A stretch of 63,944 nucleotides of DNA, counting the filler, from Malassezia furfur (taxonomy: Eukaryota), in assembly GCA_052055015.1 (NCBI GenBank). It is 4 parts of 4 records of this genome, joined end to end, with 100 filler letters (N's around TTAATTAATTAA, not from the genome) between each part and the next. Parts side by side here need not be neighbours in the genome. Positions count along the whole stretch, not along the records: positions 1 to 16,469 come from JBQJIT010000249.1; positions 16,570 to 33,015 come from JBQJIT010000250.1; positions 33,116 to 49,401 come from JBQJIT010000252.1; positions 49,502 to 63,944 come from JBQJIT010000287.1. One strand, 5' to 3'. The notes under the pieces were generated by a model that was not told where the DNA came from, made no database searches, and saw nothing but the letters and a program-made list of their open reading frames with translations. Positions within the stretch are counted from its first letter, which is position 1. The number at the start of each line of letters is the position of its first letter. The translations under genes and the position numbers were made by a program. Positions 2,054 through 63,888 of the stretch are shown here, one piece after another.

Positions 2054-2748
2054 TTAGAAGAGACGCTGAGGCTTGCCCATCGTCGACTTGATGTGCAGCG
2101 ACTTGACGTTCTGCCAGTTCTTCTTCAGCAGCGAGATGAGGAAGTTGACCGACAGCATGATGTTGGACACGAGCTGGTCCTCAGTCATCTGAACGTGGCC
2201 AATGGCAACACCAAGGCACAGCACCTTCTTGAGCTGGAACTTGATGGTGGCCTTGATCTCGTTCACACGCTTCTCAAGGTCGTCCGAGTGCGAGACGGGC
2301 GAAGGGAACTTGCCCGCCTTCGAGAGACCGGGACCAAGCAGACGAGGGATCTGCTTGATGAGGGCCTCCGAAGCCAGGAAAGCGTCGTACTTCTTAGCGA
2401 GCTTCTTGACCAGCTTCTTGTTCTTGTTGAGCTTCTTCAGGTCCTCGACAGTCATGTAGTCGAGGCTGATCAGCTTCGCACGGTCGACGTCAGCGGCATC
2501 GGCGAGAATGCACAGCGACATGCGCGGACGGGGGATGTGCGGAAGCTTGACGGTACCGCTGAAACGCTTGTCACGCTGAGGGTCGTAGTTCTTCAGACCG
2601 ATCTGGAGCTCGACCGTCTCAACGAAGTTGCGGCGCTTCTCCTCGGCACCAGTGAGGACGTCCTTGACGCTCGATCGCACACCTGACACTTGGATCTTGG
2701 ACACTGCGATGGTTAGTATCGTCCTTCGATATTCGCTCGGTACGTACT
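2054..2748 (-). CDS. RPL1: 60S ribosomal protein uL1 (L10a/L1); intron 2704-2747 splits the ATG
   Basis: Sequence [28 protein letters not shown]...[12 protein letters not shown] 44-nt intron GTACGT...TACTAAC...CAG joins A(2748) to TG(2703-2702). Confidence 0.97.
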
Positions 2749-2857
2749 TTTTGCAGGAAGGTAAGAAAAAGGAACAGGGTCCCTAGCAATTTTAGCATTT
2801 GCCGCAGCAATTTATCACGTGATCTACTCCACCACCTCCACCCTCCCACCCGCAAGC

Positions 2858-3754
2858 ATGCCGCCGAGTCAGGAGAAGGCGCAAAGCGCGCTGTACCGCT
2901 TCCGCCAGGCGCAGGCGATAGAGATGAACATGCCTACGAATGGTCCTCCTGAAGCCCGCCCCAAAACCACAGCAGGTGTTACTAGCTTGCGTGATTGTGA
3001 GCGCTGGCGCAAGGAGATCATTCGTGAGTTGGACCGCCGCATCTCCAAGATTCAGGACTGTACGTCACCTTCTAATACGCAGATGGACTGAATGAATACG
3101 AGATTCGCGATCTCAATGATGAAATTAATCAGTATTTCCGTGACAAGATCACCTGGGAGAAGCATATTATTGCACTGGGTGGTGCGAATTACCTCGCGTC
3201 GTCCGGCGGTCGCTTGCTCGACGACGACGGCAATGAAATTCCTGGAACGCATGGGTACAAGTATTTTGGTCGTGCAAAGGAGCTTCCAGGAGTCAAGGAG
3301 ATGTTCAATCGGACCGCGGAGCAAGAAAAAGAGCTGGAGTCCTACCGGACCCAAAAATTCCGTCGATTCCAGAACCAAAGTGGCGCGTACTTTGGCAACA
3401 ACGACGAACAAGACGGCAAGCTTCTTGCCGAGGAGGTGGAATCGGAGGACCTTGGCTGGACACAGGGCTGTGCGCGAATTGCCGCTGCCCTGGGACTCCC
3501 CAACACGGATGTATTCCCGCCGATTCCGCGTGAGGAACCAACAAAACTCTCGCTTTCTGCCTCGGCAAATGATACCCAAACAGACGCTGCAAAGCGCAAC
3601 TTGAATGCTATTGATGCAAGCGAGCTGACTATGCCCCAAGTCCCTGATCGCAAAGACATTGAACGATTCCTTCTCCGGGCAAAGAAGGCAGCGTTGCGGA
3701 GCGAATGTACGTGTGTTGCTGACCCCAGACCTTGGTGAAGCGCCTGCAGCATAA
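2858..3754 (+). CDS. ISY1: Pre-mRNA splicing factor Isy1 (NTC); introns 3060-3082 (23 nt) and 3707-3728 (22 nt)
   Basis: EKAQSALYRFR...CERWRKEII; splicing restores IQDYGLNEYEIRDLNDEIN; GYKYFGRAKELPGVKEMF motif present. Confidence 0.93.
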
Positions 3755-3769
3755 TGTTGTGCCAGCACA

Positions 3770-61181: not shown

Positions 61182-61227
61182 AACATCACGAGTAGAAGAA
61201 GTGTACGGTGCACCAAGCACAGCGCGC

Positions 61228-63213
61228 TCAGCTCAGCACCGAGAAGAAGGAGCGCTTCTTTTTGGCCTTGGACGCATCCGCCGCAGATGCCTCGGCACTC
61301 GCACCCGCCATCTTGGAGGCGGGCAGTACGCGGGCCTGAGACGGTGGCGGCGTGTCCGTGTCGGACGAGTCGCTGGACGACTCCGACTCCGACTCGCTCG
61401 ACGAGCCGCTAACGTCTTCGGCAGGGTGCGCGGCGTCGGCCCCCGACGTCCCAGTGCCTTCCTCCTCGGTGGGCTCGGCGGTCTCCTTTTGCGAAAAGGA
61501 GCGCCGCAGGGCCGAGGGACGCAGGTCCGACAGCTTCATAAACGCGCCCGACATGGATCGCCGCGCGGTCGAAGACTCGGACGCTTCGGCGCGCCCTGCG
61601 CGCTGCGGCGTGCTTTCCATCGGCCGCTCGGGCCGCGGCGCAGGGCCCTGCACCTGTGCGCTCGAGACATTCGCGTGCGACTCGGGCTGCGAGAAGTAGT
61701 CACGGCTCTCGCTGCCCGTACTGCTCGCCGACTCGTCGGCGTCGGCGGGCGCGTCTGTCGGCGTGGCTACCGAGGCAGGGTCTAGATCACTTTCGTGGGA
61801 AGTCAAACGAGCGTCAGTGCCTGCCCTGGGCGCATTCCGAGGCAACTCACGAGAAGAAACGTCGGCCTCGCTCGGCGTGACGCTCATGCCCTTAACCATG
61901 CTGACGAGCATCTTTTGCTCCTCCCGCTCCACGGCATTCTTGCGCTGCTTCTTTGCCTTGAGCTCCGCAAGCCGCGCCTGCATCGCATCGATCCCGGTCT
62001 CGACCAGAGCCTGCACGGCCGCCGACGCCGCGGCGCTGTGTTCCTCGTTCCGGATGTCATGCACAATCACCGTCTCGTCCTGCGCCTGGGACGCATCCGC
62101 CTCGCCCGCGGTACTGGCGTCCGCGGCCCCGTGCTTCGCAGCGTGTTTCTCCGCACGCTCCTGCTCCTTGGCCGCCTTCTTGGCCGCCTTTTCGGCACGG
62201 AAAGCCTCCATCTCTGCCTTGGTCCGCCGCGTGCGTTTCGGCTTCTCCGGGCTGTCGGCCTGCGACGAGGCGGGCGGCTGCGACGAAAGCGGCACATCAT
62301 CATCGGACGATGCATCGTCGTCCTCGGTGGGTGCGGCCGGCGCCTCGGGCACGGGGGCAGACGCTTCGGCGGCCGGCGCCGCAGCAGACTCGGTGGCCGG
62401 CTCGGCGGCCGGCGCAGGCTGGGTCTCGGCCGCTTGCACGTCCGCCTTGCGCTTGCGCCCACGCTTGGCGGGTGTGGCGGGCGCCTCCTCCGTGGTCCGC
62501 TCCGCATCAAAGAACTGCGAAACTTCGGTCGCCGACGCCGAGTCGTCCGGTGTGTCGTCCAGACGCGGCGCGCCGCGTCCACGGCGACCACGCGCCTTGG
62601 CCTGCGTCAGTGCCGCGGGCATAGGCGCCGTTGCGGTGGGCTCCGCGGGATCTGCGGGTGCCTCGGACGCGGATGCCGTGCCTACACTCGCGGCGGGGGC
62701 ATCAACGTGCACGGTAATGGTCGCCTCGCGGGCCGCGTGCACTTGGAATGCACGGAAATCCTCGTTATCATCCAAATCAATGTGCGTGCCATCGGGCGCA
62801 ACGTACGACAGACCGATGGCGACGTCGTGGGGAATCCGATACTTCTGAGCAACCATTTGGCGCACGCTGCCTAGCGTAAAACCGGCGTCAAGCACGCGGT
62901 CGAACGCCTTGCCAAATGGCGCACGGAACGCGACAATCGTCTGCCACGCCGACGTGCTCAGGTCCCCACCGGGCGCCGAGAGCATCGACACGTTGGGGTC
63001 AATCAGCGCGCGGTGCCGCGGCTTTTTCCGCTTCTGGGAGCCAGATTGCGACGGGGTGTTGTTTTGCGTGGGCGGATCGGTGCGCACCGAGACGGGCGTC
63101 GCGGGCGACTTGTGCTTGCGTTTTCCACCAGCATGAGGGGCGTGCGGCGCATGTGGCTCGCTGGTCTTGCCGGCCTCGGACCCCACAGGCATGGGCGCGA
63201 CGGGCGTGGACAT
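61228..63213 (-). CDS. Uncharacterised, largely disordered protein with a PB1-like domain and NLS/AT-hook-like basic motifs
   Basis: Long coding-biased ORF; LSYVAPDGTHIDLDDNEDF resembles the PB1 acidic motif; possible in-frame intron 61791-61850. Confidence 0.65.
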   Translation of the reverse strand: MSTPVAPMPVGSEAGKTSEPHAPHAPHAGGKRKHKSPATPVSVRTDPPTQNNTPSQSGSQKRKKPRHRALIDPNVSMLSAPGGDLSTSAWQTIVAFRAPFGKAFDRVLDAGFTLGSVRQMVAQKYRIPHDVAIGLSYVAPDGTHIDLDDNEDFRAFQVHAAREATITVHVDAPAASVGTASASEAPADPAEPTATAPMPAALTQAKARGRRGRGAPRLDDTPDDSASATEVSQFFDAERTTEEAPATPAKRGRKRKADVQAAETQPAPAAEPATESAAAPAAEASAPVPEAPAAPTEDDDASSDDDVPLSSQPPASSQADSPEKPKRTRRTKAEMEAFRAEKAAKKAAKEQERAEKHAAKHGAADASTAGEADASQAQDETVIVHDIRNEEHSAAASAAVQALVETGIDAMQARLAELKAKKQRKNAVEREEQKMLVSMVKGMSVTPSEADVSSRELPRNAPRAGTDARLTSHESDLDPASVATPTDAPADADESASSTGSESRDYFSQPESHANVSSAQVQGPAPRPERPMESTPQRAGRAEASESSTARRSMSGAFMKLSDLRPSALRRSFSQKETAEPTEEEGTGTSGADAAHPAEDVSGSSSESESESSSDSSDTDTPPPSQARVLPASKMAGASAEASAADASKAKKKRSFFSVLS

Positions 63214-63466
63214 CGGGGCTTGCGTCCAGATCCACAAATCCACGCACCGGGCCCGAAACACGTTACCACGTGACCGCGCTCGACAGGGACGTGCGCTGCT
63301 AGCGCGCTGGGCGGAACACGCGCGGCGCCACGGCGCACGGACAGGCAGGCCCTGCGAGCTGTGGGCGCACCGGATGTGCACGCGTACCGCAAAGCGCAGC
63401 GGATGCGGTGGCGCTATCTTTTCAGGAGGCATCGGTTCCATAGGCTATGTACACGGCGGCGTGCCA

Positions 63467-63888
63467 TCAGAAATCGATCGTGCGCCCACCAAATGCCCAC
63501 TCCGACTTCCAACGCAGCGGATCCTTCTTGGGGCCACCGACCTCGCCCGTCTCAGGGTTTGTGTCGCCCTCAAAGTCCTCACCGGGCCCTTGCAGAGCAT
63601 CGGGGTGCATGTTCACCGGGTTGCCCTCCTCGTCTTCAGTCACGAACGACGATTTATCTGAACACGTCAGCCAAACGACTTACTCTGGTTTTCACGAACG
63701 AGGCGCTCAAACTCGAGCTGGTCCTCCTTCGGCAGCGGCGGCGGCCCCGCACGCTGAAACGGATTGTCCGAGTCGGAACGCCGCGTGACCGTCATTGTCA
63801 AGGTACGCCGTGCCAACGCAATCGGCATGGGCATCGCGTTCCGCGACATGCAAAGGTGGCGCGCACTGGGCAAGCAGCAAAGCGCCAT
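63467..63888 (-). CDS. SDH8: Succinate dehydrogenase assembly factor 4; intron 63658-63683 (26 nt); start uncertain
   Basis: GPPPLPKEDQLEFERL and FEGDTNPETGEVGGPKKDPLRW...EWAFGGRTIDF*. Confidence 0.9.

Follow-up and report, generated by a model that had tools for sequence, protein, structure and literature searches.

Predicted spliceosomal introns of 21-25 nt and their compact signals in genes of Malassezia furfur

Introns of very small size are already known as a class from the genus Malassezia, whose genes are described in a review as holding "very short introns" (PMC7426719). In the curated annotation of M. sympodialis, 5,350 introns with a mean length of 30 bp are reported, 99% of them supported by RNA-seq, where an earlier annotation had given a mean of 65 bp (PMC5389616). 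The mean and median lengths are 37.2 and 30 bp in M. restricta and 68.1 and 40 bp in M. arunalokei (PMC9241646), the minimum intron length allowed for M. restricta having been set to 15-20 (PMC6473144), and the MAKER models of M. globosa have introns of 76-79 bp on average (PMC4634964); all these values are as given in the available portions of the papers. The spread of the published means looks as if it follows annotation quality. In this study we analysed a 63,944-nt stretch of M. furfur nuclear DNA (hereafter the window), which consists of four parts of four records of assembly GCA_052055015.1 joined by filler, and in which a first-pass annotation had proposed a class of 21-25 nt spliceosomal introns. 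We conclude, with a probability of roughly 0.87, that the window holds about 45 ordinary U2-type GT-AG introns, that two-thirds of these have been reduced nearly to the lower limit of a functional intron, and that this is a genus-wide trait.

The curated set, which covers the whole window, comprises 45 GT-AG introns in 22 genes (Table 1), that is, 45 introns in about 64 kb. The median length is 25 nt and the mean 29.4 nt, in agreement with the mean of about 30 bp of the published Malassezia class. The observation of many predicted introns of 21-25 nt in this sequence was confirmed: 29 introns fall into this class, seven have 26-30 nt, nine are longer than 30 nt and none is shorter than 21 nt. 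The first-pass annotation had listed 49 introns in classes of 33, 7 and 9; its two longer classes have the same counts here, but the total has come down to 45 and the 21-25 nt class to 29. It had also suspected that, with short introns known from Malassezia, the novelty might be partial, and had held that the class would be unremarkable if relatives showed the same mode. Both points turned out to apply within the genus, given the mean of 30 bp in M. sympodialis and the median of 30 bp in M. restricta, as far as the available text of the two reports goes. The window shares genus and statistics (30 bp in M. sympodialis vs 29.4) with the M. sympodialis and M. restricta sets, with about 1.2 introns per gene; those sets have RNA-seq support and called for the lowered minimum intron length mentioned above. 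The available text of PMC5389616, PMC9241646 and PMC6473144 gives means and medians, and in it M. furfur is not covered and branch anatomy, a 21-nt floor and micro-exons were not found described; nor did the open-licence PMC and bioRxiv literature yield a paper describing Malassezia branch sites or an intron length floor. The genome-wide extent of short introns in M. furfur rests on the genus literature.

To compare the short class with chance, both strands were scanned for a strict motif (GT[AG]NGT, then YTNAY, then YAG within 15 nt), lengths being permitted from 14 nt upward. This gave 34 candidates of 21-25 nt, while a mean of 2.33 and a maximum of 7 were obtained in 100 first-order Markov simulations of the window and four candidates in the reversed window sequence, so that the enrichment over chance is about 15-fold. 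The 26-45 nt class was not enriched in the same scan (17 vs 12.2 expected). The only match below 21 nt (18 nt) is nested within the 22-nt ISY1 intron, and the earlier statement that no intron is shorter than 21 nt holds for the curated set. Among the 34 candidates 28 were accepted and six rejected. Four of the latter (28017-28038, 39443-39466, 39624-39647 and 46506-46530) lie on the wrong strand or break the frame, which agrees with the number expected by chance; the other two (59981-60004 and 60056-60079, 24 nt each) form the opposite ends of a single 99-nt intron, the two-intron alternative meeting a stop codon. The first VAC14 intron, the donor of which (GTACGC) lies outside the strict pattern, was added to the 28, resulting in the 29 introns of 21-25 nt.

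The lengths are distributed over the three classes modulo 3 as 13/20/12, which does not differ from uniform (chi-square P = 0.28), as expected of non-coding segments. The GC content of the short introns (0.618) equals that of the window. When only the donor was constrained, coding potential alone chose the identical acceptor for about 15 short introns; the corresponding gene finder recovered the short introns, yet still chained genes together. A fully motif-blind gene finder (any GT..AG, 10-300 nt) joined neighbouring as well as antisense genes by way of long spurious introns and was rejected, and a coding-frame test in 120-nt flanks, in which short exons led to many false inconsistencies, was not used as a count. 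Several introns of a motif-limited model were also discarded. Read-through of 17913-17951 (39 nt) and 53691-53741 (51 nt) matches the LIP and ABA_GPCR profiles unbroken; 50311-50359 (49 nt), which leaves an 11-position gap in the FSH1 profile, gave way to 50311-50335; 47656-47714 (59 nt) was replaced by two introns flanking a 10-nt exon; and 3954-4082 (129 nt) and 40818-40925 (108 nt) were unsupported, the latter being replaced by 40818-40907.

Protein homology supports 26 of the 45 junctions, motif and frame a further 15, and motif alone four. Homology was assessed by matching exons separately to Pfam profiles, by aligning spliced models to orthologues and by alignment to solved chains. The profile positions reached by the two exons adjoin or nearly adjoin across the junctions in ISY1, TCTP, the metacaspase, RRP7, VPS25, FUR1 (two junctions), the LYR-family gene, FSH1 and SPC3 (positions in Table 1). 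For FUR1 (47264-48106), the model with seven introns yields a protein of 220 aa that aligns gap-free with the UPRTases of seven non-Malassezia genera (Tilletia, Pseudozyma, Acaromyces, Thecaphora, Testicularia, Phakopsora and Orbilia). Within this gene, 116 nt (47603-47718) hold three introns of 28, 25 and 25 nt and two micro-exons of 10 nt (47681-47690) and 28 nt (47628-47655). In RPL10A, residues 1-215 of the downstream exon align to residues 2-216 of solved uL1 chains, the Met alone being missing, which fits a start codon split by the 44-nt intron. All four examples named in the first-pass annotation (ISY1, VAC14, VRG4 and FUR1) have homology support, and the coordinates it gave for the introns in ISY1 (3060-3082), VRG4 (37928-37950) and VAC14 (10830-10851) proved correct. 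Its claim that removal is needed to restore conserved proteins is upheld by the gap-free FUR1, VRG4 and VAC14 alignments and by the adjoining ISY1 profile. Searches of solved structures found no Vac14 chain. One FUR1 exon matches two M. furfur proteins with 100% identity and one of M. brasiliensis with 98%, and VRG4 is 97% identical to its M. brasiliensis counterpart, which points to a Malassezia host, either M. furfur itself or one very closely related. The gene at 59706-60496 in its five-intron form (192 aa) matches a 197-aa M. pachydermatis orthologue end to end, a support that comes from within the genus only.

All 45 introns start with GT and end with AG by construction, as this was a selection criterion. 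Their donors are of a kind able to pair with U1 and U6 (GTRNGT-like), which was partly selected for as well, and a YTNAY motif, also part of the selection and containing a predicted branch A, lies upstream of the acceptor. No ATCCTT-like donor of the U12-type minor class (AT-AC or GT-AG, with the branch TCCTTAAC) was present among the 43 introns examined.

The anatomy was tallied in the same 43 introns, while the first-AG figures, like the length classes and the GC content above, cover all 45. The donor is GTACGT in 30 of the 43, and GTATGT, GTAGGT, GTGCGT, GTAAGT, GTGAGT or GTACGC in the others. The branch motif, CTCAC in 17, CTGAC in 13, CTAAC in seven and other in six, conforms to CTNAY in every case, and 42 introns end in CAG. 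The distance from the branch A to the 3' end is 5 nt in 24 introns and ranges from 5 to 9 nt overall. In introns of up to 30 nt, donor hexamer and branch pentamer are 6-11 nt apart in 35 of 36 cases and 13 nt apart in the remaining one, and no spacer is below 6 nt. Thus, the hexamer, a spacer of at least 6 nt, the branch motif and a tight 3' end set a floor of 6 + 6 + 4 + 5 = 21 nt, at which the branch A is placed 15 nt downstream of the initial G and 5 nt short of the 3' end. Position 16 for the branch A of the 21-mers, as the first-pass annotation had it, was indeed found in four out of four. The first AG past the branch is the acceptor in 44 of the 45 introns. The branch A and this AG are separated by just 3-7 nt, and so a canonical pyrimidine tract cannot fit; the earlier assertion that such a tract is lacking holds in this respect but needs the qualification that 73% of these few bases are C.

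CTAAC is commoner in introns longer than 30 nt than in the minimal ones (5/9 vs 4/36, Fisher P = 0.009 in a small sample). Introns longer than 30 nt lie in highly expressed gene types (uL1, TCTP and SmE). Some verified introns with a length divisible by three have no stop codon in any frame, e.g. the 27-nt intron of SmE and the 24-nt intron of the metacaspase; their retention would add 7-9 residues and would not truncate the protein or trigger nonsense-mediated decay. Another in-frame candidate free of stops in any frame is located at 39227-39247.

Table 1. Introns of the curated set (positions along the window; PF, Pfam profile positions matched by the upstream and then the downstream exon)
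Gene and intron	Position	Strand	Length (nt)	Features and support
RPL10A (uL1)	2704-2747	-	44	Start codon split A/TG; GTACGT..CTAAC..CAG; homology to solved uL1
ISY1, 1	3060-3082	+	23	GTACGT..CTAAT..CAG; PF Isy1 4-65, 67-252
ISY1, 2	3707-3728	+	22	Motif and frame, not homology; Isy1 profile stops at exon end
TCTP, 1	4832-4874	+	43	Motif and gene model; exon too short for homology
TCTP, 2	4928-4967	+	40	Motif and gene model; next exon begins at TCTP profile position 22
TCTP, 3	5173-5204	+	32	PF TCTP 22-89, 90-164
CTNNBL1, 1	6326-6350	+	25	Motif; frame shift fits length
CTNNBL1, 2	6648-6670	+	23	Motif; frame shift fits length
VAC14, 1	10830-10851	-	22	Donor GTACGC; follows 4-nt coding exon; spliced N-terminus gap-free vs Vac14 representatives
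VAC14, 2	10734-10756	-	23	Spliced N-terminus gap-free vs Vac14 representatives
Metacaspase, 1	14495-14519	+	25	PF Peptidase_C14 1-145, 146-228
Metacaspase, 2	14778-14801	+	24	In-frame; indirect: read-through exon 91 residues vs 83 profile positions, excess 8 aa = 24 nt
Unnamed gene 31381-31945, candidate	31540-31560	+	21	In-frame; motif only
Unnamed gene 31381-31945	31826-31850	+	25	Motif, frame; stop codon upon retention
RRP7	32028-32052	-	25	PF RRP7 39-92, 95-120
VRG4, 1	37928-37950	+	23	Gap-free across junction vs 14 GDP-mannose transporters
VRG4, 2	38149-38171	+	23	Gap-free across junction vs 14 GDP-mannose transporters
Gene 39140-40487, candidate	39227-39247	+	21	In-frame; motif only
Gene 39140-40487	39450-39471	+	22	Motif, frame; stop codon upon retention
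SmE, 1	40709-40735	+	27	In-frame, stop-free; read-through is an exact 9-residue insertion vs solved SmE chains
SmE, 2	40818-40907	+	90	Conventional; distant TGCTAAC, long pyrimidine-rich tract; sequence reading
SmE, 3	40937-40972	+	36	Motif and sequence reading
VPS25 (ESCRT-II)	44055-44079	-	25	PF ESCRT-II 2-107, 109-129
RXT3 gene, candidate	46741-46770	+	30	In-frame; motif only
FUR1, 1	48018-48039	-	22	Seven-intron model alignment
FUR1, 2	47891-47924	-	34	Model alignment; PF UPRTase 10-38, 40-97
FUR1, 3	47691-47718	-	28	Upstream of 10-nt micro-exon; model alignment, conserved I-Q-R restored
FUR1, 4	47656-47680	-	25	Between 10-nt and 28-nt exons; model alignment; L003 orthologue
FUR1, 5	47603-47627	-	25	Model alignment; L003 orthologue
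FUR1, 6	47518-47539	-	22	Model alignment; PF UPRTase 111-130, 132-191
FUR1, 7	47311-47334	-	24	Model alignment; L003 orthologue
LYR-family	48237-48257	+	21	In-frame; PF Complex1_LYR 1-17 (weak, E 0.19), 20-46; L003 orthologue
FSH1 (serine hydrolase)	50311-50335	-	25	PF FSH1 3-31, 36-209
GPHR/ABA_GPCR	54528-54552	-	25	Motif, open frame continues beyond; 58-nt alternative exists
DUO1	55234-55260	+	27	Stop if retained; Duo1 profile position 32 is the first residue beyond
OSBP gene start, candidate	55734-55757	+	24	In-frame; motif only
OSBP gene	56130-56154	+	25	Sole TAG acceptor of the set; motif and frame
Gene 59706-60496, 1	59831-59853	+	23	M. pachydermatis orthologue
Gene 59706-60496, 2	59888-59922	+	35	M. 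pachydermatis orthologue
Gene 59706-60496, 3	59981-60079	+	99	M. pachydermatis orthologue
Gene 59706-60496, 4	60204-60229	+	26	M. pachydermatis orthologue
Gene 59706-60496, 5	60452-60480	+	29	C-terminus matches M. pachydermatis orthologue
SPC3 (SPC22), 1	60718-60739	+	22	Motif and frame
SPC3 (SPC22), 2	60894-60914	+	21	In-frame, stop-free; PF SPC22 56-98, 101-172, boundary residues fill 99-100
DUF1674 gene	63658-63683	-	26	Motif, frame; stop codon upon retention

A minimal intron consists of three nearly abutting signals, namely the donor hexamer (mostly GTACGT), after a spacer of 6-11 nt the CTNAC branch motif, and, beyond 3-4 mostly C bases, CAG. According to our reading, U1 and then U6 would pair with the donor and U2 with CTNAC, a lariat with a loop of 15-20 nt would form, and the first AG past the branch would serve as the 3' site with no need for a U2AF-type pyrimidine tract. 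As the footprint of the spliceosome makes simultaneous removal implausible in the FUR1 cluster, its three closely packed introns would be spliced one by one. The SmE gene combines a 27-nt minimal intron with a conventional one of 90 nt, in which the branch motif lies about 50 nt upstream, and with one of 36 nt, which suggests that a single machinery handles both kinds. The C-terminus produced by removing the 90-nt intron presumably resembles that of SmE. Deletion bias and genome compaction would have pushed ancestral introns to a steric floor.

The history of the introns was addressed by scanning metagenome contigs with the FUR1 alignment, which revealed relatives at two informative loci. In the first (L003, GC 50%), FUR1 introns of 27, 53, 31 and 57 nt match in position and phase those of 28, 25, 25 and 24 nt in the window, both micro-exons are conserved in position, and the LYR intron occupies the same site with 33 nt instead of 21 nt. 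In the second lineage (L001/L002), a Malassezia-like relative, FUR1 is encoded by 666 uninterrupted bases (L001 2501-3166) with 86.5% identity to the protein of the window, LYR is intronless, and thus all eight introns (seven in FUR1 and one in LYR) are absent, while the order of RXT3, FUR1, LYR and the next gene is conserved. The introns are thus ancestral, stand near the floor in M. furfur and have been lost together elsewhere; their joint loss suggests replacement by a cDNA copy.

Among tiny-intron systems, the ciliates (Paramecium, about 25 nt; Stentor, 15-16 nt), in so far as the accessible descriptions extend, resemble the window in intron length, in GT-AG ends and in a narrow distribution with a sharp lower bound. 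The introns of the window differ in being GC-rich (62%), in having a strong explicit branch motif and in a floor of 21 nt rather than 15 nt. In Paramecium, moreover, lengths divisible by three are under-represented and the retained introns of such length carry stops. No such depletion was found here, where 13 of 45 introns are multiples of three and most of these lack an in-frame stop, in a small sample in which detection is biased against stop-free introns of this kind. Microsporidia, nucleomorphs, dicyemids and myxozoans likewise have spliceosomal introns of less than 30 nt in compacted host-associated genomes, to go by the available part of PMC13644364, whereas Malassezia is a basidiomycete yeast that grows freely and can be cultured and transformed. 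Malassezia is left out of the passage of this 2026 paper on lineages with introns below 30 bp, and the word is absent from its text as available. A constrained branch-3' site region is known from intron-poor eukaryotes such as Yarrowia, Giardia and Trichomonas. As in the account given in the available portion of PMC2483917, branch and acceptor form a nearly fixed unit in the window (A 5 nt from the end in 24/43); in contrast to those species, the 5' half is compressed too and intron density is not low.

The possibility that the segments are not introns, but assembly or sequencing indels, translated inserts, programmed frameshifts or pieces removed by a non-spliceosomal route, is extremely improbable. 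Translation is conceivable for in-frame members that lack a stop codon, e.g. 40709-40735, 60894-60914 and 48237-48257, and segments of this sort are indeed translated in the public models of relatives. However, 32 of the 45 introns are not multiples of three and their retention would destroy conserved proteins; GT..AG ends with donor and branch consensus, found in all, would not arise from random errors; and the inserts are located exactly where the orthologues of other genera and the solved structures have none, at positions common to L003, in which the sequence and length of the insert differ. It is doubtful, though conceivable, that M. furfur is more extreme than the genus, with the 21-25 nt mode being specific to the species or its clade. 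Four of the five introns with orthologues are shorter in the window than in L003 (123 vs 201 nt in total), and published values elsewhere are higher (median 30 in M. restricta and 40 in M. arunalokei, mean 76-79 in M. globosa). Yet L003 is a single relative, and the best-curated set, that of M. sympodialis, has a mean of 30 bp vs 29.4 here. The higher values come from weaker annotations, the M. sympodialis mean having itself dropped from 65 to 30 bp on curation, with the reports taken at the extent available, and in M. obtusa a 7-aa insert fits a 21-nt intron at the VRG4 site that has 23 nt in M. furfur.

An altered spliceosome or assembly order, as the first-pass annotation had inferred from U1 and U2 being hardly able to share so short an intron, we consider unlikely, although the geometric argument is a reasonable one. 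On this view U1 and the branch machinery cannot occupy the intron together, and components of the machinery would have co-evolved with the introns, for example through a 5' end of U1 fitted to GUACGU, an altered ISY1 tip or the loss of dependence on U2AF or Mud2. Such a view draws on the narrowness of the gaps (6-11 nt from donor to branch, 3-7 nt from branch A to AG, with no room for a canonical pyrimidine tract) and on the donors, since about 80% of the short introns have C at +4. This C would face U in the canonical U1 5' end. The window encodes three spliceosome-related proteins, SmE, ISY1 and CTNNBL1. The ISY1 tip (start 2858-2870) reads M-P-P-S-Q-E-K. Opposite its S, three solved ISY1 chains, the human one among them, align an N at residue 4, and the solved yeast chains align from residue 5 only. 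In other species this tip reaches the catalytic centre, and the Stentor study conjectures that divergence of the ISY1 N-terminus eases the branching of tiny introns (both from the available text of PMC9505925); the recognition mechanism in Paramecium is called poorly understood in the accessible part of 10.1101/2021.08.05.455221. Against this, the ISY1 tip is a single observation compared only with solved chains, SmE and the ISY1 N-terminal helix are well conserved, and conventional introns of 90 and 99 nt occur in the same genes, which indicates that the machinery still copes with ordinary introns. Furthermore, Stentor retains all snRNAs and most core proteins despite introns of 15-16 nt (PMC9505925, as far as available), and tiny introns thus need not imply a remodelled spliceosome. 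The far-reaching version, that most Malassezia introns are spliced along a different assembly route, with hand-over replacing co-occupancy, a first-AG 3' site chosen without U2AF and matched parts such as U1 and ISY1, is improbable as well; if true, it would make Malassezia, a haploid yeast with a genome of ~8 Mb, culturable and transformable, the first tractable fungal model for minimal-intron splicing.

Several points weigh against our preferred interpretation of ordinary U2-type introns shrunk to near their floor across the genus. The support for the introns of the window comes from sequence and homology, and 19 of the 45 are backed by the motif, in 15 cases together with the frame and in four by itself. 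For the gene at 59.7 kb, all five introns depend solely on another Malassezia gene model, itself a prediction. Because the candidate list demanded a donor and a branch motif, some of the uniformity in anatomy follows from the selection, any introns with different signals would have been missed, and the branch A is predicted from the motif. The first-pass annotation counted four introns more than the curated set. The direction of shrinkage relies on five orthologous pairs from one relative, with the shorter member in the window in four.

The scan of the window with Rfam at gathering thresholds found no RNA gene. A region at ~16000-28500 has a GC content of 0.52-0.56 compared with 0.62-0.68 elsewhere, and none of its genes, which encode a secretory lipase, an FMN-dependent dehydrogenase, DJ-1/PfpI, an MFS transporter and a PF06742 (DUF1214) protein (27190-28506), has an accepted intron. 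For PF06742, a lateral transfer into the Malassezia ancestor has been proposed by Wu et al. 2015 (PMC4634964, in the portion available). The runs of N at 16470-16569, 33016-33115 and 49402-49501, each seen as paired 44-base runs 12 bases apart and spaced by ~16.5 kb, are the filler joints.

The introns bear on the gene models in public databases. Of the 11 named Malassezia FUR1 records that we aligned, six depart from the conserved sequence where the introns lie. Conserved blocks are absent from the two M. furfur records (168 and 184 aa), and the 10-nt micro-exon is absent from that of M. brasiliensis; the M. yamatoensis record translates two in-frame introns, and the sequences given for M. 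sympodialis ATCC 42132 and M. equina are garbled or cut short. VRG4 (window 37697-39065) is mis-modelled in M. yamatoensis, where exon 2 is skipped, and in M. obtusa, where the insert ends in L-T-Q and fits a translated 21-nt intron. In general, the translated in-frame inserts of public records, one of 7 aa in M. obtusa and two of 9 and 10 aa in M. yamatoensis, sit at intron positions and fit introns of 21-30 nt in those species. In another M. yamatoensis record, SPC3 and its neighbour at 59.7 kb are joined into one gene (window 59706-61181), and in a VAC14 record of 95% identity both N-terminal exons are missing. Any comparative study or proteomics of Malassezia skin yeasts takes over such gene-model errors at tiny introns. 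At the same time, the short introns of Malassezia are under-recognised in the wider literature on tiny introns, and their anatomy provides a clean empirical lower bound for the fungal U2-type intron, which, being derived from sequence alone, is independent of the thresholds of read aligners.

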